DNA of 64,000 bases from Candidatus Poribacteria bacterium (GCA_963665845.2 OY762492.1:3584001-3648000), one strand, 5' to 3'; positions 17,006 through 28,477 are shown, counted from the stretch's first letter. A program made the numbers and translations. Notes: a model not told the origin generated them from the sequence alone.

Positions 17006-20000
17006 ATGCAGACCCCCAACGGCAGCGATCAAGCCGTCCAAGCGGCTCTCGATAAACTGAATGAGAAGAGCTCTCAACAAACGGACGGCAAGTGGCTGGA
17101 AGAAATCGCCGTAAAAGCAGGACCGCATATCCGAGACTGGGACGTTTCGGAATGCTACTACTGGGGAGATTGGCCGGATCGAGAAAAACATTTTCCCGGC
17201 GTCAAACAGGTAGACATCGGCATTGACGTCGTCGCGGTAAGCGGCAGCGGCGAGCATATCGCCATCCAATGCAAGGCGCGCCAATTGGACGAACAAGGCG
17301 CCGGCGCTTCCGTATCAAAAGACGAAATGGCGAAGTTTATCAGCGCGTCGGCGCATTCGTTTTGGGCGGAGCGGTGGCTCGTCACAAACGGCAGCGTCCC
17401 GCAAAGCCCGCAGCTCAAATCCCTCCTGAACATGCAAGAGAAGCGCACCACATGGATCAACATCGCTTACGATCTGCAGCTCCAGCAGAGACCGGCAGAC
17501 GAGGACGCATGCCCCCATTGCGAACCGAACCCTGACGGCGAATTCCGCCAACAGACCAAAAACTGCATGCAGCGGGAAGCGGTCGAAAACAGCGTCCGCA
17601 TTCTAAAAGAGCATGAGCAGTCCAACAGCGGCGGACTGCCGATTGGTCAAGCGCGCGGCAGGATCATCCTCCCATGCGGAACCGGCAAAACGCGCATCTC
17701 TCTGCGCATCGTAGAGCAGCTGGCGGCGCAGGGCGAACTGGCGGTCATCCTTTGCCCCTCCATCGCTCTCGTCGCGCAGATACGGCGCGAATACCTGCAG
17801 CATGCGAACCTCCCAATGAGAGCGTTGGCGGTATGTTCCGATCAAACGGCGGGATACGATCCGAAAAAAGAGGACAGCGTCATCGCAAACGAAGACCCGA
17901 CCATCGACCGAAGCAACGTCAGCGCCTCCGAAGTGAAAGGGAAAGTGACGACGAAGCCGATGGAGATCGCCGAATGGATAACGGCGTCCGACAGCGAAAA
18001 CGCCGTCAACGTCATCTTCGGAACCTACCAGAGCGGACATCGCATCGCCGAGGCGCTGCGCCAAACCGAAACGAAAGCGGCGGTTCTCATCGCGGACGAA
18101 GCGCATCGAACCGCCGGACTAAAACGCAAACGCAGCAAGAGCAAGACCGCGTCCGAAGCGGAAAAGCGGATGCGCGACTTCACCCTGTGCCATGACAACG
18201 ACGCATTCCCGGCGACATACCGCGTCTATCAAACGGCGACGCCGCGCGTCTACAACACCAGCAAAGGCGCCGACCGAAACGCCGACTATATCGTCCGCTC
18301 CATGGACGACGAACGGGTGTTCGGGGTGGAACTGTACCGCAAAAGCTATGTCGAGGCGGTCAAAAACGAATGGCTGTCCGACTACCGAATCATCGCGCTG
18401 GCGATCAACGACCCGGACGCTTACGAAGAAGCGAACACTCTGGCAAAAAACACGAAAAGCAAAGGACGGCGCAAACTCAGCTCGGCAGACTACATGCGCG
18501 GACTCGCCTTCGCCCTGGCGATGGGCGGCGCCGCCCAAGCCGCAGGCGACGACGGCATCAAAATCGAATCATGCATCGCGTTCATGAACACGGTCGACAA
18601 ATCAAAAAACATGGCGCAAGACCTGCAAAGCAAAGCGGTCAAGCAATGGGTTCAAAAATGGCTCCATGAAAACAGCGCCAACGGAAAACGGGTCTCCGAC
18701 TACCGACTCGAACACCTGGACGCCACCAGCAACGTCACCGAACGAGACCACGCCAAATTCAAACTGGCGACCGCAAGCGAAGAGAAACCGCATGGGATCG
18801 TCAATGTCGGCATCTTCGGCGAAGGAACCGACTCCCCCTCCCTGAACGCCGTAGCGTTCCTAGAGCCGCGCAAAAGCCCCATCGATGTGATTCAAGCCGT
18901 CGGGCGCGCCATGCGAACGGCGCCCGGCAAACAGTTCGGCTACATCGTCTGCCCCGTCGTCATACCGCCCAACGCCGATCCTGAACAGTGGCTCAGCGCC
19001 AGCAATATGACGGAGGGATGGCAGGAGCTGGGGCAGATACTGCTCGCGCTGCGGGCGCATGACCAGCGCATCGAAGAAAAGCTGGCGGACCTGATGCTTC
19101 TATACATACCGCCGGCGCCAGAGGTTCAGCGCACATTGGTCGCCATCGCCATGCCTGAAAGCAAGCGCATTCAGTACCGAATACATGAAGGTAAACCGGG
19201 AGAAGCGGAGCAGGCGGTCAAGCGAGTCCTGGACGGAAAAAGCGCCATGTCGGACGAGTTCAGCCGCATTGAAAAGGAGTCTTCGAAGGAGCCTTCTGAC
19301 GCGATCGGGAGCGTCAAAGAGGAGCCGCAGCAGGAGCGGAAACCTGTTGAGCTGACCGCCATTATCGCCGGCAAGACGAACAGCGGCGGCGCGCCCGAAA
19401 TGCGGCTCGCCTCCATTCAAAGAGACAAGCCGAAATCGGACGGAACGCCAGGGAAAGTCAATATCGAGAAGTCGAAGACAAAAGCGAAAAACATGATCAA
19501 CAAAAGCGAAGGCGTCCGTACCCAGGCGCGCAAACCGAATCCGAAGCCCGCGAAACGGCGAACGAAAGAAGAGATCGCCGAAGACTCCGCCCAGCGGCTG
19601 CTGGAGCTCAGCGGCATGGGCGAATACGGCAGAGCCATCTGTATGAACCTGCTGACGAAATCGGGACTCAGAAGAAACCGCATCGAGAGAGACCTGAACA
19701 TCTTGGAAAAAAGCGTCAGCGAAGCGGCGTTCGAACTCCAAAGCGACGGACTGAACGAAATACTGGACAAGCATTTCGGCTTGGACAGATTGAAAAAGAC
19801 GCCCGGCAAAAAAGCGGCGGACGGCTGCACCATAACCTCCCTGCTCATGATGAACGCCGCCATGCTCCATCAGCGCATCAGCAACGGCGGATGGCTCTCC
19901 CAAATCAGCCCGTTGAGCGAGGTCAAACACGACACAAGGGTCGTCCAAAGAATATGCCGAGAATGGGAACGCATCATGCGCCATGACTTCCGACCCGTCC

Positions 20001-22027
20001 TGGAACCGGCGCTGGAAACGATCTACGCCATCGAAGAAACCGGCAAAACGGCAGGGCTGGAACGCGCCCTCCGACACCTCGCCGCCGAAGCGGAGCGCAT
20101 CGCCGAAACCTACGCCGACATGGGAGCCGACCATGCAGGTCCCCTCTTCAACCGCGTCATGGGCAACCAGACCAGCGACGGCGCCTTCTTCACGCGGCCG
20201 GCGGCGGCATCCATCGCCGCCCGACTCACCCTGGACGCATGCGGAGACGCGGACTGGACAGACGCAAACGTGTGGAGAGAACACAAAACGGTCGACCTGG
20301 CATGCGGAAGCGGAACGCTCCTGACCGCCATGCTGACCGACATGAAACGGCGCGCCCAAGAGCAAGGCGCCAGAGAAGCGCTGATCGCCAACCTGCAAAA
20401 AATAGCGGTCGAGGAAACGATCAAGGGGCTGGACATCAACCCCGTATCGCTGCAACTGGCGGCGGCGCAGCTCACCGCGGGGAACCAGAACATACGATAC
20501 CGACAGATGGGGCTGCATCAGATGCCCTACGGACCGCAAGACGAAAACAGCGAACGGGTGTCGGCGGGGACGCTGGAATTGCTGTCGCAGAAGGCGATCC
20601 TGCCGCGCCAAGGAGAGCTGGACATACCGGACGAGCTGATCGAGTCGCAAACGGTGTGGGATCAGCATGAGGACGCCGAGCTGGAAGACGCCGTGGACGC
20701 CGCGAAAAACTGCCGCATCGTCATCATGAATCCGCCGTTCACGAACCGAGCGAATATGGGGCAAAAGTTTCCGAAGGAGACTCAACAGAAACTGCGCGCG
20801 CAAACTGACCGGCTGGAGAAAAAACTGATATTCAACGATTCTGAAATGGAACGTTTTGTCGATAAGAATTCCATCGCCCCTCTGTTCGTCGCTTTGGCAG
20901 ATTGCTGCTTGAATTCGGACGCGGCTGTGTTGTCCATGATACATCCGACAATAGCCTTGACGAATCCGTCGGGATTGAATGAACGACTGATTCTTGCTCA
21001 ACGCTACCATATTCACACCGTGGTTACCTGCCATCAGCCGGGACAGGTGAACATGAGTCAGAATACTGGAATCAATGAGAGCATCATCATCGCAACGCGG
21101 CATGAAGGTGCCGCCCCTTCTACAAGGTTCATCAATCTAGACAGAATGCCGCTTCAAGAAAGCGATGTAGACGATCTGCATCGCTGTCTGCTTGAATGCA
21201 AGGAAGGCGAAATCGGCAACGGATGGGGCGCGGCGTCCTACTGGAATGCAGACCGCATAAAAGCGGGCGACTGGACGCCTGCGATATGGAGGTCGCCTGA
21301 ATTGGCGGAGGCGGCTCATACATTCGCCAATCTTACTGGCATGGAAACGATCGAAAGCACACCCGGCCTATCGCCTGTGGAGACAGGCCGGGTGTTGCGC
21401 GGATCTTTCGAGAGCGCAATGCCCGACGAAGATGGCAGTTTTCTGATACTGAAATCGAAAAGCGCCGACGCTCAAACGCGGATTCAAAGTCAGCCTGACG
21501 AGCATTATATTTCGAAGAAACGCAGCGCCGCCGACACTAAAAAATTGTTGAATAAAGCGGGACATCTACTGATGACTGCAGGTCAAAATACATCAACTGG
21601 CCGTCTCACAGCGATCGCAAATGACAAGAGTTACGTGGGCAACGGCTGGATGCCGGTAACAGGATTGTCGGCGAAAGAAGCGAAAGCGCTAGCCGTGTTC
21701 ATTAACTCAACGCCAGGTCGACTGCAGCTGATGCGTAACCCTGGTCGTCTGCTGATATTTCCTACCTACAGCGTCGCGGAAGCCGGTAAGATCCGCATCC
21801 CCGACATCCAAGACGCGCGCGTCTGCGGCGTCTTAGCGGACTGCTGGGAAGCGACGCAAGCGATGGAGGTTCCTCAGTTCCGCGACGGTGAATGCGATGT
21901 TCGCGTTTTATGGGATGAGGCGGTCGCTTCGGCTCTGGGCTGGGATGCCGCCGAGTTGTCCCGCCTCCGCCGCCTTCTTCACAAGGAGCCGCATGTCCGC
22001 GGCCTCGGCTATAACCAATACGCCTGA
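17006..22027 (+). CDS. Type ISP-like single-chain restriction-modification enzyme (Mrr nuclease, SF2 helicase, N6-adenine methyltransferase, TRD)
   Basis: GIDVVA...IAIQCK (Mrr); PCGTGKT, DEAH, TATPR, QAVGRAMR (helicase); GAFFT, DLACGSG, NPPF (MTase). Confidence 0.9.
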   Translation: MQTPNGSDQAVQAALDKLNEKSSQQTDGKWLEEIAVKAGPHIRDWDVSECYYWGDWPDREKHFPGVKQVDIGIDVVAVSGSGEHIAIQCKARQLDEQGAGASVSKDEMAKFISASAHSFWAERWLVTNGSVPQSPQLKSLLNMQEKRTTWINIAYDLQLQQRPADEDACPHCEPNPDGEFRQQTKNCMQREAVENSVRILKEHEQSNSGGLPIGQARGRIILPCGTGKTRISLRIVEQLAAQGELAVILCPSIALVAQIRREYLQHANLPMRALAVCSDQTAGYDPKKEDSVIANEDPTIDRSNVSASEVKGKVTTKPMEIAEWITASDSENAVNVIFGTYQSGHRIAEALRQTETKAAVLIADEAHRTAGLKRKRSKSKTASEAEKRMRDFTLCHDNDAFPATYRVYQTATPRVYNTSKGADRNADYIVRSMDDERVFGVELYRKSYVEAVKNEWLSDYRIIALAINDPDAYEEANTLAKNTKSKGRRKLSSADYMRGLAFALAMGGAAQAAGDDGIKIESCIAFMNTVDKSKNMAQDLQSKAVKQWVQKWLHENSANGKRVSDYRLEHLDATSNVTERDHAKFKLATASEEKPHGIVNVGIFGEGTDSPSLNAVAFLEPRKSPIDVIQAVGRAMRTAPGKQFGYIVCPVVIPPNADPEQWLSASNMTEGWQELGQILLALRAHDQRIEEKLADLMLLYIPPAPEVQRTLVAIAMPESKRIQYRIHEGKPGEAEQAVKRVLDGKSAMSDEFSRIEKESSKEPSDAIGSVKEEPQQERKPVELTAIIAGKTNSGGAPEMRLASIQRDKPKSDGTPGKVNIEKSKTKAKNMINKSEGVRTQARKPNPKPAKRRTKEEIAEDSAQRLLELSGMGEYGRAICMNLLTKSGLRRNRIERDLNILEKSVSEAAFELQSDGLNEILDKHFGLDRLKKTPGKKAADGCTITSLLMMNAAMLHQRISNGGWLSQISPLSEVKHDTRVVQRICREWERIMRHDFRPVLEPALETIYAIEETGKTAGLERALRHLAAEAERIAETYADMGADHAGPLFNRVMGNQTSDGAFFTRPAAASIAARLTLDACGDADWTDANVWREHKTVDLACGSGTLLTAMLTDMKRRAQEQGAREALIANLQKIAVEETIKGLDINPVSLQLAAAQLTAGNQNIRYRQMGLHQMPYGPQDENSERVSAGTLELLSQKAILPRQGELDIPDELIESQTVWDQHEDAELEDAVDAAKNCRIVIMNPPFTNRANMGQKFPKETQQKLRAQTDRLEKKLIFNDSEMERFVDKNSIAPLFVALADCCLNSDAAVLSMIHPTIALTNPSGLNERLILAQRYHIHTVVTCHQPGQVNMSQNTGINESIIIATRHEGAAPSTRFINLDRMPLQESDVDDLHRCLLECKEGEIGNGWGAASYWNADRIKAGDWTPAIWRSPELAEAAHTFANLTGMETIESTPGLSPVETGRVLRGSFESAMPDEDGSFLILKSKSADAQTRIQSQPDEHYISKKRSAADTKKLLNKAGHLLMTAGQNTSTGRLTAIANDKSYVGNGWMPVTGLSAKEAKALAVFINSTPGRLQLMRNPGRLLIFPTYSVAEAGKIRIPDIQDARVCGVLADCWEATQAMEVPQFRDGECDVRVLWDEAVASALGWDAAELSRLRRLLHKEPHVRGLGYNQYA

Positions 22028-22057: not shown

Positions 22058-22885
22058 GACTCCCCCCTTGAAAAGGGGGGCTGGGGAGGTTTTCCGCGTC
22101 CGGCCCCGGCTACGTCATTCCCGCGCCCCCTCCTCGTCATTCCCGCGTAAGCGGGAATCTTAGGCGCCGCAAGGCGCCGTCCGCGTCCGGCCCCGGTACG
22201 TCATTCCCGCGTAAGCGGGAATCCAGAGTCATGCCCGACCCCGCCCGCGTCCGGCAATCACCGCCATCCCGCCCGCCGTTGTCTGAACTAGGATTGCCAA
22301 GATTGAAAAGATTGCCAAGAAATTCCCGAAATCGCTATCTTGGCAATCTTAATAATCCTTCCATCCTAGTTCAAAACCCTGACGCCGCGCGCCGCGCTGT
22401 CATGCGCGCGTCCGGCAATCACCGCCATCCCGCCCGCCGTCATTCCCGCGCCCCCAATGCGTCATTCCCGCGTAAGCGGGAATCCAGAGTCATGCCCGAC
22501 CCCGCCCGCGTCCGTCCGCCTCCTCCTCTGTCTGAACTAGGATTGCCAAGATTGAAAAGATTGCCAAGAAATTCCCGAAATCGCTGTCTTGGCAATCTTA
22601 ATAATCCTTCCATCCTAGTTCAAAACCCTGACGCCGCGCGCCGCGCTGTCATGCGCGCGTCCGGCAATCACCGCCATCCTACCCGCCGTCATTCCCGCGC
22701 CCCCAATGCGTCATTCCCGCGTAAGCGGGAATCCAGAGTATGCGCCGCCCCCGCCCGCGTCCGGACGCCATGCCTGCATCCCCAGCCCGTCATTCCCGCG
22801 TAAGCGGGAATCCAGAGGCATGCCCGACCCCGCCCGCGTCCGTCCGGACGCCATGCCCGCGCCCCCTACCAGTCGTCATTCCCGA
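22058..22885. repeat. Composite repeat cluster: REP-like palindromes and a 249-bp duplication carrying a ~90-bp palindromic element
   Basis: Many GTCATTCCCGCG(TAAGCGGGAATC) copies; TGAACTAGGAT...ATCCTAGTTCA at ~22284 and ~22533. Confidence 0.88.
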
Positions 22886-23930: not shown

Positions 23931-24158
23931 ATCGTAGCCCTTTCAGGGTGAGCGGTCAATGCGCTGGCGACAAGCTTGCCCTGCCACCATGTCGTTAATG
24001 AGTATACGCTGTTCGGCGCGAAAAGGTTACCGCTTTTTTCAACGGCGACGGGCGCAGCAATTTCCCTGTCGCGCCCGCCGCTTGACAAACCCCTCCATCG
24101 TGTATCATCCTTTAACAGCCCATCATAAGGGCGTCGTCGGCATCGATTGGAGCAAAGC

Positions 24159-24656
24159 ATGGTTAAACGAATCGAACTTGAACGCGATCGGTTTTTAGCG
24201 CATCTAACATCGAAGAGTCTTGCTGCGGGCGGCGAATCGGTTGAATGCTGCCTTAAAGCGGTTGAGGTCAATCCTGAAAACGAAGGCGCGCATTATCGCT
24301 TAGCCGTTGCGTATGCGCGAGCCGGCGACCTTGAAGCCGCCCTGGAAAGCAGCGCTCAAGCGATCCGAATCCAGCCCGACTTCGCTGAAGCATATCTTCT
24401 GCGCGGGCTTGTGTATGAGCAGAAAGGCGAGCTGGAGCTTGCCCATGAGGACATCGCTACTGCTGTCCTCCTGAAGCCTGAACTTTACGATGAGCGGTTT
24501 GAACCGATCATGGAAAGCATCCGCGAAGAGGAAGCGGAGTGGGACGAACTCACCAGCCGGCCGGAAGCGAAGGCGCTGTTTGAGAAATGGGAAGCGGAAG
24601 CGATGGAGGAGTATCGAGCGGGGAAAACGAAGCCTTTGGATCCTGAGGATCTATGA
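24159..24656 (+). CDS. TPR-repeat protein with an antitoxin-like C-terminus
   Basis: TPRs (NPENEGAHYRLA, QPDFAEAYLLRG); tail EAEWDEL...EAMEEYRAGKTKPLDPEDL; ATGA overlap with the toxin. Confidence 0.8.
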   Translation: MVKRIELERDRFLAHLTSKSLAAGGESVECCLKAVEVNPENEGAHYRLAVAYARAGDLEAALESSAQAIRIQPDFAEAYLLRGLVYEQKGELELAHEDIATAVLLKPELYDERFEPIMESIREEEAEWDELTSRPEAKALFEKWEAEAMEEYRAGKTKPLDPEDL

Positions 24657-24925
24657 TGCGCTCGCGCATATGTTCTCGGTTTCGAAAGCAATTCAGGCGT
24701 CTTCCAAAGGAAGTCCGGCAACGGGCAAGGGAGGCATACCGACTATTTAAAACGAGCGAACGCTACCGCAACTTACGATTTAAAAAATTACAGGGTAGCA
24801 GCCGCAAATATTCGGTTCGTTTTTATAAAAAATACCGCGCTCTCGCCAGAAAAACGGATGAGGGCGACCTCGTATGGTATTCGATTGGATCGCATGCGAC
24901 ATACGACAAGGATATAAAAAGATAA
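24653..24925 (+). CDS. RelE/ParE-superfamily toxin
   Basis: Basic 90 aa: FRKQFRRLP.EVR..A..AY.LF, LRFKKL, YSVR...YRAL, WYSIGSHATYD. Confidence 0.85.
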   Translation: MMRSRICSRFRKQFRRLPKEVRQRAREAYRLFKTSERYRNLRFKKLQGSSRKYSVRFYKKYRALARKTDEGDLVWYSIGSHATYDKDIKR

Positions 24926-25021: not shown

Positions 25022-25567
25022 ATGAGCGAACGAAGCGGAACGGAACGAAAACAGCATCGAGACCCTTGGAACGAACTGCGCGCCGCTCTCATCCAGGCGC
25101 AGGCGCAGCTGGCGCAGTTGGACGTTGAGCCTGAGCGGCGGGAGAACTGGACGCCTCTTCTCGATGGCGCATTGGAGGCGGTCAACAGGTTCAAGGCGCG
25201 TCAAAAAGAGATACCCGGTCTCCGCCGCGCCGCGGAGCGTCTGGCGGTGGAGGAATGCCGCGATGTCCGGACAGCTCTTGGATACGCGCTGAACGAGGCG
25301 CTGGAGCGTTTAGGCGATCTGGCAGTATTTCGGCGCGACATGCGCCGTCATGCCCTTTCGATAGAGGCGTCGGGCGAAGAAAAAAGCGGCTTTGCGGCGG
25401 CGCTGCTCTGTGTCAGTCGGTCGCTGGAGGCGTTGAAGATTGAGGCGATCAACGATGTTCTTCTGAAAATTCGGGCGGAGAATTCGATCCATGCCCTCCG
25501 CTATCTGCAGACTCGTATCAAAACCGGCGGGCGGACTTTCACTCGGGATGAAATGAATGAGCGTTGA
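25022..25567 (+). CDS. Extended VapB-like antitoxin, array unit 1
   Basis: 181 aa, helical; C-terminal GGRTFTRDEMNER overlaps the PIN start; GGAGG RBS. Confidence 0.75.
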   Translation: MSERSGTERKQHRDPWNELRAALIQAQAQLAQLDVEPERRENWTPLLDGALEAVNRFKARQKEIPGLRRAAERLAVEECRDVRTALGYALNEALERLGDLAVFRRDMRRHALSIEASGEEKSGFAAALLCVSRSLEALKIEAINDVLLKIRAENSIHALRYLQTRIKTGGRTFTRDEMNER

Positions 25568-26020
25568 GTATTTTTTGGATACGAATGTAATCATATACGT
25601 GTACGATGAGAAAGAAAATCAAAACAAAAGACAAAAGCGGAGGAATTAGTTATAACCGCGCTCACGCATCAGACGGGATGCGTCAGCTATCAGGTTGTGT
25701 TGGAGACGCTGCATGTCATGAAAACGAAACTAGGAACCGACGATAGGGATGCGAAGACCGCGCTGATTGAGGTTTTGATTCCGCTATGGAGAATCAACCC
25801 TGTCATGCAAAACCAGCAAACCGAACAGGTATTCATGGATTCGCAAATTTATGTGCGCGCTCTGGATATTTTCACCAGTCATGGCGTCCGTAACTACTAC
25901 GACTGCGTCGTCGCCGTAAACGCCATGGACGCCGGATGCGCGACGCTTTATACGGAAGACCGCCACCTGCTGCGCGTCCAGCGGATCGAAGATATGGACA
26001 TCGTCAACCCGTTCACCTAA
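25557..26020 (+). pseudogene. PIN/VapC toxin, unit 1, frameshifted (-1) near 25626
   Basis: MSVEYFLDTNVIIY stops at 25649; the -1 frame continues ...SYQVVLE...YDCVVA...LYTED...NPF. Confidence 0.85.
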
Positions 26021-26103
26021 AATAGGGGCTGAACTCAAAACAGGGAGCGGCGCAACTTGACAGCGCGTCATAAGGGCGTTGTCGGCAGCGATGGGAGGCG
26101 GAC

Positions 26104-26649
26104 ATGACCGAACGAAGCGGAACGGAACGAAAACAGCATCGAGACCCTTGGAACGAGCTGCGCGCCGCTCTCATCCAGGCGCAGGCGCAGCTGGCGCAAT
26201 TGGACGCGGCGCCTGAGCGTCGGGAGAACTGGACGCCTCTTCTCGATGGCGCGTTGGAGGCGGTCGACAGGTTCAAGGCGCGTCAAAAAGAGATACCCGG
26301 TCTCCGCCGCGCCGCGGAGCGTCTGGCGGTGGAGGAATGCCGCGACGCTCGGATGGCGTTCGGACGCGCCCTGAGAGAGTCGCTGGATCAATTGAGAACC
26401 CTGACCAAATTTAGAGGCGAAATGCGCCGTCACGCGCTCGCTTTAGAATCGTCGGGCGGAGAAAAAAACGGCTTTGCGGCGGCGCTGCTCCGAGTCAGTC
26501 GGTCGCTGGAAGCGGCGCCGATGGAAGACGCCGACAAGGCTCTTAATAAACTTCTGGGGGAGAATTCTGTCCAAATCGCCCGCTATCTGGGGACCCGAAT
26601 CAAAACGGGCGGACGTACCTTCACACGGGATGAAATGAATGAGCGTTGA
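26104..26649 (+). CDS. Extended VapB-like antitoxin, array unit 2
   Basis: Paralog of 25022..25567 with the same C-terminal tail. Confidence 0.75.
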   Translation: MTERSGTERKQHRDPWNELRAALIQAQAQLAQLDAAPERRENWTPLLDGALEAVDRFKARQKEIPGLRRAAERLAVEECRDARMAFGRALRESLDQLRTLTKFRGEMRRHALALESSGGEKNGFAAALLRVSRSLEAAPMEDADKALNKLLGENSVQIARYLGTRIKTGGRTFTRDEMNER

Positions 26650-27081
26650 CCATTTTTTGGACTCCAACATCGTCATTTACTACTACGACGATCAAAGTCC
26701 AAAAAAGAAAGCAAAAGCGAGGCGCATGGTGGACAGCGCGCTCAATAATCAAAACGGCTGCATCAGCTTCCAGGTCGTTCAAGAAACAATGTATGTCATC
26801 AGGAAAAGCTGCGGGTGGACGATAAAGACGCTGAAGCCATGCTGAATGACATACTGCTGCGACTTTGGCAAGCGAATCCTGTGCGGGAGACCGACCCGAC
26901 GCCGGAAATGTACAAGCGCGCTTTCGATCTCCATAAACGGGGCGGAATCGCCAATTTCTACGATTGCGTCATCGCCGTAAACGCTCTCGACGCCGGATGC
27001 GCCGCGCTCTACACCGAAGACGCGGGTCTGCTCCACGCCCAGCGGGTTGAGGATGTGGACATCGTCAACCCGTTCAACTAA
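26639..27081 (+). pseudogene. PIN/VapC toxin, unit 2, frameshifted (-1) at 26804-26807
   Basis: FLDSNIVIY...SFQVVQE in one frame; FYDCVIA...LYTED...NPF in the -1 frame. Confidence 0.85.
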
Positions 27082-27161
27082 AATTAGGCTGACTCAAACG
27101 GGGAGCGGCGCCATTTGACAGCGCGTCATAAGGGCGTCGTCGGCAGCAATAGGAGGCGGAC

Positions 27162-27698
27162 ATGACCGAACGAAGCGGAACGGAACGAAAACAGCATCGA
27201 GACCCTTGGAACGAACTGCGCGCCGCTCTCATCCAGGCGCAGGCGCAGCTGGACGCCGAGCATGAATGGCGGGAGGGCTGGGCGGACCTCCTCAATGGCG
27301 CATTGGAGGCGGTTGATAGGTTCACGGCGCGTCAAAAAGAGATACGCCGCCTCAACCCCATCGCTGAGCGTCTGGCGGTGGAGGAGTGCCGCGATGCCCG
27401 GCTAGAGCTTGGATACGCCCTGAACGAAGCGCTGGATCGATTGAGGTCCTTGACCAAATTTCGGAGCGAAATGCGCCGTCATGCGCTCGCTCTAGAATCG
27501 TCGGGCGGAGAAAAAAGCGGCTTTGCGGCGGCGCTGCTCCGCGTCAGTCGGTCGCTGGAAGCGGCGAAGATCGAAGACGCCTACAAGGTTGTTGATGAAA
27601 TTCAGAGGGAGAATTCGCTCCAGAGCCTTCGGTATCTGGAGACCCAAATCAAAACGGGCGGACGTACCTTCACACGGGATGAAATGAATGAGCGTTGA
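27162..27698 (+). CDS. Extended VapB-like antitoxin, array unit 3
   Basis: Paralog, 178 aa, same tail. Confidence 0.75.
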   Translation: MTERSGTERKQHRDPWNELRAALIQAQAQLDAEHEWREGWADLLNGALEAVDRFTARQKEIRRLNPIAERLAVEECRDARLELGYALNEALDRLRSLTKFRSEMRRHALALESSGGEKSGFAAALLRVSRSLEAAKIEDAYKVVDEIQRENSLQSLRYLETQIKTGGRTFTRDEMNER

Positions 27699-28130
27699 CC
27701 ATTTTTTGGACTCCAACATCGTCCTCTACTACTATGACGATCAAAGTCCAAAAAAGAAAGAAACAGCGAGGCGCATGGTGGACAGCGCGCTCAATAATCA
27801 AAACGGCTGCGTCAGCTATCAGATCGTTCAAGAAACAATGTATGTCGTCCGGAAAAGCTGCGGGTGGACGATACGACCGCCGACTTCATGCTGAATAACA
27901 TACTGCTGCGGCTTTGGCAAGCGAATCCCGTGTGGGAAACCGACCCGACGCCGGAAATGTACAAGCGCGCTTTTGATCTCCACAAACGGCGCGGAATCGC
28001 CAATTTCTACGATTGCGTCATCGCCGTAAACGCTCTCGACGCCGGATGCGCCGCGCTCTATACCGAAGACGCGGGTCTGCTCCATGCCCAGCGTATCGAG
28101 GATGTGGACGTCGTCAACCCGTTCACTTAA
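27688..28130 (+). pseudogene. PIN/VapC toxin, unit 3, frameshifted (-1) at 27853-27856
   Basis: Same split position as unit 2. Confidence 0.85.
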
Positions 28131-28151
28131 AATAGAGGCTGAACAAAGCGG

Positions 28152-28251
28152 CATAAGGGCGTTGTCGGCAGCGATAGGAGGCGGACATGACCGAACGAAG
28201 CGGAACGGAACGAAAACAGCATCGAGACCCTTGGAACGAACTGCGCGCCGC
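28152..28251 (+). pseudogene. Truncated fourth array unit (leader and first ~21 codons of the antitoxin)
   Basis: CATAAGGGCGTTGTCGGCAGCGATAGGAGGCGGACATGACCGAACGAAGC...GAACTGCGCGCCGC, then similarity ends. Confidence 0.85.
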
Positions 28252-28477
28252 GCAAGACGCCTGAACGCCCGCGCCGTCCGCGCCCTCATCGCCTGCCCTG
28301 TGAAACGGGGTCATTCCGGCTCCCGTCCTTTAAACCCCCTACCCCCTTTTCAAGGGGAATCGAACGCGCCGCGCCGCGAATATCCCCGTATGAGCGTACT
28401 GCCGTCAAAAGCGGGCGGTTGCAATTAAACCGCATCCGACATACCATGTAGGCGTATGAAAATGCGAAAGGCGAATT

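Follow-up and report, generated by a model that had tools for sequence, protein, structure and literature searches.

Why should three neighboring toxin genes each lack a single nucleotide when the partner gene of each is whole? The question is raised by positions 25022-28130 of the window, by which we mean the whole 64,000-nt stretch analyzed here (C1:3584001-3648000 of a 3.98-Mb genome in three contigs). A first-pass annotation of this DNA had left three answers side by side: programmed slippage or frameshifting that limits the toxin dose, a toxin made of two chains, and repeated toxin inactivation.

A tandem array of PIN genes and their partners

The region consists of three head-to-tail units of ~1.05-1.08 kb each (spacing 1082 and 1049 nt), all on the plus strand. 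Each unit is composed of a common leader, an intact ORF of 178-181 aa ending in GGRTFTRDEMNER, and a PIN gene. The antitoxin-like partners are found at 25022-25567 (unit 1, 181 aa), 26104-26649 (unit 2, 181 aa), and 27162-27698 (unit 3, 178 aa), which bears out the earlier reading that they are intact. The PIN genes lie at 25557-26020 (464 nt), 26639-27081 (443 nt), and 27688-28130 (443 nt), and are all 1 nt short, their lengths leaving a remainder of two when divided by three. Read in frame 0, they end after 30 aa in unit 1 (stop at 25649) and after 68 aa in units 2 and 3 (stops at 26845 and 27894). As had been claimed, the halves are otherwise open, with no second stop or indel in any of them (3/3 units), and the acidic residues D8/E49 and D109/D128 are present, split over two frames. 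The frame-0 products, which keep at most two of these four residues, are predicted to be inactive. Below the array, a fourth-unit stub (28139-28255) retains the leader and the first 22 partner codons, the remainder being lost. Above it, a pair with a leader common to the array (24147-24925) encodes a TPR protein (24147-24656; TPR_1) and an intact ParE-like toxin (24653-24925; ParE_like, 41.8 bits for a cut-off of 24.4). Rfam gave no matches within the window.

An intact paralog of the PIN genes matches PIN (PF01850) with 45.2 bits (cut-off 23.6), yields a structural model with a pLDDT of 94.7, and contains the four acidic residues of PIN domains, D8/E49/D109/D128, which are conserved to 90% or more across 96 sequences. 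Its model superposes on FitB and VapC11 with TM scores of 0.62-0.65 and, as in VapBC/FitAB toxin-antitoxin (TA) systems of type II, the PIN genes overlap an upstream partner, by 11 nt in all units. The nearest relatives pair with partners of 73-98 aa, which share their tail (GGRxFTRDEMNER) with the 178-181-aa partners of the array; two of these small partners have weak DUF6364 or VapB_antitoxin matches, below cut-off. The common tail and the PIN fold thus suggest that the units work like VapBC. The difference lies in the array partner, a larger protein that is predicted to form a helical bundle, whereas the nearest neighbors have a DUF6364-like partner or an AbrB-like VapB. The unit 1 partner has no Pfam family over cut-off, and for the array partner, in which a VapBC-type pair would have an RHH, AbrB, or Phd DNA-binding domain, searches of Pfam, NCBIfam, and Atlas returned no usable match. 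Its model is all-helical (pLDDT 72), and the best hits of the fold search (Z of up to 10.0) are generic, unrelated helical bundles. The 181-aa partner can be described as a predicted helical bundle, unclassified, with a VapB-type tail. In some copies the partner is fused to TPR, as in a 448-aa copy.

The closest solved structure, by both profile (E 1.4e-19) and fold (TM 0.73), is PcrIIC1 (PDB 8wmm), a PIN-domain Cas9 accessory defined as encoded with a type II-C Cas9 (PMC12669027). A Cas9-accessory role was rejected because no Cas9 was found, TIGR01865 having no match over cut-off in this 90%-complete genome. The array genes also differ from PcrIIC1 in being organized in two-gene TA-like units.

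Position and authenticity of the breaks

All three PIN genes had been described as split at an AAAAG motif. The 1-nt deficit is indeed common to the three, and the sites in units 2 and 3 (26804 and 27853) stand, but the site in unit 1 does not. Frame 0 across the breaks reads CAA AAG CGG in unit 1, AGG AAA AGC in unit 2, and CGG AAA AGC in unit 3. Unit 1 is co-linear with P0027, a 154-aa full-length relative found in the cluster of the unit 1 C-terminal piece, which reads K-R-Q-K-A-E-E-L at the break. Since frame 0 of unit 1 matches P0027 through K-R-Q, the break falls in the next A4 run at 25633-25636 (CAA AAG CG, hence A_AAG in frame 0), 7 nt downstream of the AAC AAA AGA (25626) named previously. 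When an X is placed at codon 27, unit 1 aligns to P0027 without gaps and with 15 substitutions. At the corresponding K-A, the paralogs read AAA GCG, from which we infer an A5 ancestor for unit 1. A +2 insertion in unit 1 (41 nt as against 39 in the family) was considered and rejected, because P0027 has one extra codon there. In units 2 and 3, the breaks (26804-26807 and 27853-27856) affect the same codons, K56-K57, with an A4 where the intact paralogs have A5.

The AAAAG motif at the breaks says little, being present in 2105 of the 2865 called C1 ORFs and two to three times in each PIN gene of the array. Longer A-runs are whole, as previously noted for other genes of the window, in which 71 runs of at least five A are unbroken in 48 called ORFs. 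Within units 2 and 3 themselves, A6 runs at 26701-26706 and 27750-27755 are unbroken, and the called C1 ORFs together contain 3027 unbroken A5, 1034 A6, and 332 longer runs.

The breaks might be sequencing or assembly errors, i.e., homopolymer deletions that escaped correction in a repetitive part of a long-read assembly. This three-contig assembly is able to hold indel errors, since two of its contigs, C2 and C3, repeat C1 in noisy form, with gaps at 43 and 35 positions. A raw-read check had been proposed earlier, and contigs from sequencing runs X1-X4 (at most three samples from one study, with no library type on record, and possibly including the source of the assembly) reproduce the breaks of units 1 and 3. 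In unit 1, 25379-26110 is covered by contigs of X1, X2, and X3 (732 nt; depth 21-31); in unit 3, 27781-27948 is covered by those of X1, X2, and X4 (168 nt; depth 6-36). There are 0 differences and 0 gaps in both cases, which makes six gapless contigs in four runs among the matches listed. The unit 2 break is spanned by none of the contigs among the matches listed. All four runs contain a separate contig with one extra base at the unit 2/3 site (joint 26804>27853). Such a distinct five-A form is expected from the intact paralog, and C1:1679993 does have A5 in the unit 2 context. A 151-nt record from another study is identical to 25509-25659 from end to end, although it ends 23 nt beyond the run, short of the tool's 31-nt rule. 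The unit 1 break is thus seen in three samples, and probably also in a second study (X5), and is not a one-off. The thousands of A5-A10 runs that are whole in C1 ORFs argue in the same direction. The breaks are therefore real and in the DNA; for units 1 and 3, an error in the assembly can largely be dismissed, and as an explanation for the array it is highly improbable.

Intact copies, relatives, and the alternatives to decay

There are eight copies of the family in the genome, three of which are frameshifted and three intact (1674916, 1679993, and 3495637), while a repeat element interrupts one (1675921) and another is without the acidic residues (3496151). The intact copies C1:1674916 and C1:1679993 are 88-92% identical to units 2 and 3 at the DNA level and have kept A5, which in C1:1679993 is flanked by the same bases as the unit 2 run (5 on the left and 18 on the right). 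Full-length relatives are also present in the protein collection, P0027 for unit 1 and P0033 and P0034 (147 aa). Since these three and the partners P0003 and P0007 have one and the same longest-contig figure (47,954 nt), they appear to come from one sister array. Two runs from two other studies, X6 and X7, are one base longer at the unit 2 site, at depths of 37.3 and 24.5 out of 121.1 in X6 (where the remaining depth carries no allele call) and 13.1 out of 13.1 in X7.

Among 70 GTDB loci of the family, 63 are apparently whole, 6 are lesioned, and 1 (L068) runs off its contig, with the proviso that the profile scan may overlook lesions in the outermost 12 positions at each end and that some of the lesions may be sequencing errors. 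The scan had scored 64 loci as whole and 6 as partial; five were read by eye, and L048, scored as whole, was moved to the lesioned loci. The lesions differ in kind and place. By eye, they are a +1 at codon 10 (L048), a stop at codon 14 (L036), a +1 near codon 14 (L057), a shift near codon 20 (L056), and an in-frame deletion (L063), and from profile pieces a large deletion (L091). Some of the 28 representatives listed out of 150 show early, scattered frame departures, which were left out of the lesion count because they are known from protein only. Searching 40 related genomes at the DNA level brought up a single 39-nt match, a protein search of seven other genomes of the organism's family gave no match, and a scan of GTDB genomes for the partner family gave no loci. 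A pattern scan of metagenomes recovered three loci, all distant and intact.

In a recoding scenario, a few ribosomes would slip -1 (at A_AAG in unit 1) or RNA polymerase would add an A, so that full-length toxin is made at a low, selected dose. The true unit 1 break does read C AA_AAG in frame 0, and A_AAG is described as a known minimal -1 site (PMC5009743). There are no second lesions, dN/dS is below 1 in both halves, and the change is alike in all three units. As in the programmed -1 frameshifting or transcriptional slippage of dnaX, IS3/IS1222, and mxiE, there is a -1 transition at an A-run. Unlike in these systems, the break is not conserved, heptamer and stimulator are missing, and the run has only 4 A. 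The rule stated for GeneTack is at least five genes with a conserved frame-break site (PMC3711429), whereas here two close paralogs and three relatives are intact at the break and 0/70 GTDB loci are lesioned at the array's sites. None of the three breaks has an X_XXY_YYZ heptamer, and a Z_ZZN tetramer (A_AAG) is found only at that of unit 1, the G_AAA_AGC of units 2 and 3 fitting neither pattern. The A_AAG downstream in unit 2 (codon 63) is missing from unit 3, and an in-frame A_AAG is present in 1982 of the 2865 called C1 ORFs. No 3' stimulator was found at any unit. The 80 nt downstream of the breaks fold no better than shuffled sequences, with z of -0.76, +0.86, and +1.17 (pseudoknots being outside the model) as compared to -0.05 and +0.19 for intact copies, and the sequence 9-14 nt upstream contains no Shine-Dalgarno-like word.

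Transcriptional slippage would call for a longer run. In the accounts consulted, slippage-prone runs are ~9 nt in many genomes, depending on the organism, although shorter ones may slip in some bacteria (PMC1088944), and insertion rates climb exponentially with run length (PMC5574713). The array has no A/T run of ~9 nt at its breaks, and A4 is far below the usual length. RNA contigs (X10) are from a diverged strain and uninformative on slippage. The programmed slippage or frameshifting offered earlier is thus unlikely, given an unconserved break, no 3' stimulator, and a short run. So is the evolutionary scenario it implies, in which this strain convergently made three array toxins dependent on recoding, with a low amount of full-length PIN serving as a selected dose dimmer and full-dose paralogs elsewhere. 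If true, this would be a TA system tuned by recoding. A literature search for TA systems with programmed frameshifting of the toxin gene found no paper.

Reversible phase variation, with A5 and A4 alleles changing back and forth within the population to turn the toxins on and off, would account for lesions that are all within A-runs and for the presence of both alleles among related strains. However, a run of four to five bases is very short for a contingency locus, and with 3027 A5 runs in C1 ORFs, such a run is unremarkable. The mismatch repair genes are intact. Among the matches listed in the four runs, no +1 contig has the unit 1 or unit 3 flanks, although contigs drop rare variants. We regard a switch of this kind as very unlikely.

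The third alternative is a split toxin, in which the 68-aa N-terminal piece and an 88-aa piece restarting at a GTG would together form an active PIN. Each piece would have two acidic residues, and the break is placed by the model at the end of helix 44-57, adjoining a loop. A GTG preceded by (A)GGA just after the break, as pointed out in the first-pass annotation, is indeed present in units 2 and 3 (GTG 26815 and GTG 27864, each 9 nt downstream of AGGA/CGGA), but the two intact paralogs have it just as well, coding for R55-K56...V60, and it is thus inherited coding sequence. Moreover, the N-terminal piece carries 12 out-of-frame residues, and unit 1 breaks elsewhere, its next starts (25697 and 25718) losing ~20 residues or more. 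In a search for shorter forms, the one candidate (1/1) was this genome's own 68-aa piece, with no fragment from any other genome. A two-chain toxin, once an open option, is on this evidence extremely improbable.

Probable toxin-first decay in a recombining array

The first-pass annotation had coupled intact relatives with neutral evolution of the downstream halves. We found intact relatives and paralogs, but halves that do not look neutral. Between the PIN genes of units 2 and 3 there are 35 differences in 443 nt (dS 0.19), with dN/dS of 0.37 in the 5' half and 0.28 in the 3' half. Taken alone, these low values would favor function after the break. The history of the copies suggests otherwise. 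For units 2 and 3 and the two paralogs, each of the three possible trees is favored by some of the informative sites (6, 7, and 5), and the partner genes likewise have a patchwork make-up. Over its 55-residue N-half, unit 2 has 0 differences from the intact P0034 and 7 from unit 3. Counted over both halves, the differences are 0 + 7 with the intact P0034 and 7 + 10 with the broken unit 3. Since unit 2 equals P0034 in its N-half yet is unlike unit 3, and the copies are mosaic, the break is probably younger than the divergence of units 2 and 3. The low dN/dS was then probably inherited from intact ancestors, before the breaks. The break common to units 2 and 3 lies inside a 23-nt tract that is identical in both, which fits a short conversion or a second hit.

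A mutator state was rejected since mutS and mutL are intact. Losses in short runs occur in other genes, though. A paralog-based scan yielded 68 frame-switch clusters (48 in C1 and 20 in C2/C3) for ~485 intact paralog loci, and 16 of the 48 C1 clusters were aligned, those with noisy, repeat-derived, or already-broken queries being excluded. Other clear C1 cases include G4>G3 (1397854), A6>A5 (2898984), and, at 2051904, a CG repeat that has lost 2 nt. Such losses in other duplicated C1 genes make short-run loss a background process in this genome.

Together, these findings argue strongly that the three PIN genes lost their function recently and are pseudogenes of a duplicated, VapBC-like array whose partners are intact. 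Repeated toxin inactivation, the last of the options raised at the outset, is thus the one supported by the intact paralogs and relatives and by a break that is not conserved. The lesions are restricted to a strain or to certain copies, with intact homologs and partners, as in toxin pseudogenes. Replication slippage from A5 to A4 would have hit unit 1 a single time and units 2 and 3 one or two times between them; the break of the latter two was likely moved between neighbors by short gene conversion, or else recurred at the run. The mutants would persist because a redundant toxin can be given up at no cost or even to advantage; loss of the antitoxin before the toxin would, by contrast, do harm as long as there are intact toxin paralogs.

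Several observations do not sit easily with decay. All three toxins of the array (3/3) have a like lesion and no second one, and units 2 and 3 share their break. The corrected unit 1 site is an in-frame A_AAG, at which a -1 slip gives exactly the Q-K-A-E-E-L of P0027. The unit 1 break is not private to one sample, recurring in three and probably in X5, and there is no mutator state to account for the lesions.

Toxin-first TA decay is documented (PMC13617665, PMC7167474). In the Photorhabdus TA counts, 185 copies have toxin-only pseudogenization as compared to 8 with antitoxin-only (PMC13617665). The array resembles such erosion in its broken toxins, intact partners, clustered copies, and strain-patchy distribution. 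It differs in that its lesions are three 1-nt losses in A-runs, in a single tandem array, and in that its intact copies are putatively active. Under this reading the locus is ordinary, a further case of toxin-first chromosomal TA decay, which gives a clear view of recombining tandem copies that may share a lesion. The array would matter beyond this only if full-length toxin passes the breaks, in which case recoding would set the toxin dose. The unclassified partners, helical and in some copies fused to TPR, hold more promise for follow-up than the frameshifts do.

The antitoxin-like partner and its relatives

The partner genes of the three tandem units (window 25022-25567, 26104-26649, and 27162-27698) encode proteins that retain a VapB-type C-terminal tail. 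Structural prediction places a helical bundle without a family match in the partner, where its relatives are predicted to carry a small DNA-binding domain. TPR-fused forms occur in the same assembly (448 aa; ~3494300-3495647 of the main contig, C1) and as P0010 and P0011, two relatives from the protein collection. Only 11 partner homologs were found. The partner is possibly a sensor-fused antitoxin.

PIN paralogs and other features of the assembly

Among the PIN paralogs elsewhere on C1, one (3496151-3496582) lacks most of the acidic active-site residues and lies directly behind an intact PIN gene. Another is broken up after 11 codons by a copy of the short palindromic GTCATTCCCGC repeat, which forms a family (window 22060-22880 and C1 ~1675950).

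The two small contigs, C2 and C3, duplicate C1 regions (1159054-1171431 and 1286347-1300671) at about 97.4% identity, with many 1-nt insertions relative to C1; they probably represent a second strain at low depth. ARAGORN predicted two overlapping tmRNAs, one of them permuted (C1:2106884-2107678), and a tRNA-Sec (C1:523705-523800).

Fourteen ORFs of 435-541 aa (C1:2850112-2851404, 3767017-3768453, 384580-386013, and 11 more) match the Cas9 model in its HNH part only. Since all three of those read start with DPPF, a DNA-methyltransferase motif, these ORFs are likely to be methyltransferase-HNH fusions.

Surroundings of the array

A sigma70-like site (TGGACA/TGGACG-17-TAAAAT) overlaps the stop and last codons of each array PIN gene (window 25995-26023, 27056-27084, and 28105-28133) and is oriented toward the next unit; the array region holds six such sites, whereas 2.3 are expected. 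Upstream, at window 24111-24925, an intact ParE-like toxin gene is overlapped by a TPR protein gene. This is a second TPR-plus-toxin pair, and its leader is that of the PIN units. Farther upstream lies a 1673-aa ORF (window 17006-22027) with what are presumably helicase-like and methyltransferase-like motifs, which suggests that the array sits in a defence-island setting.
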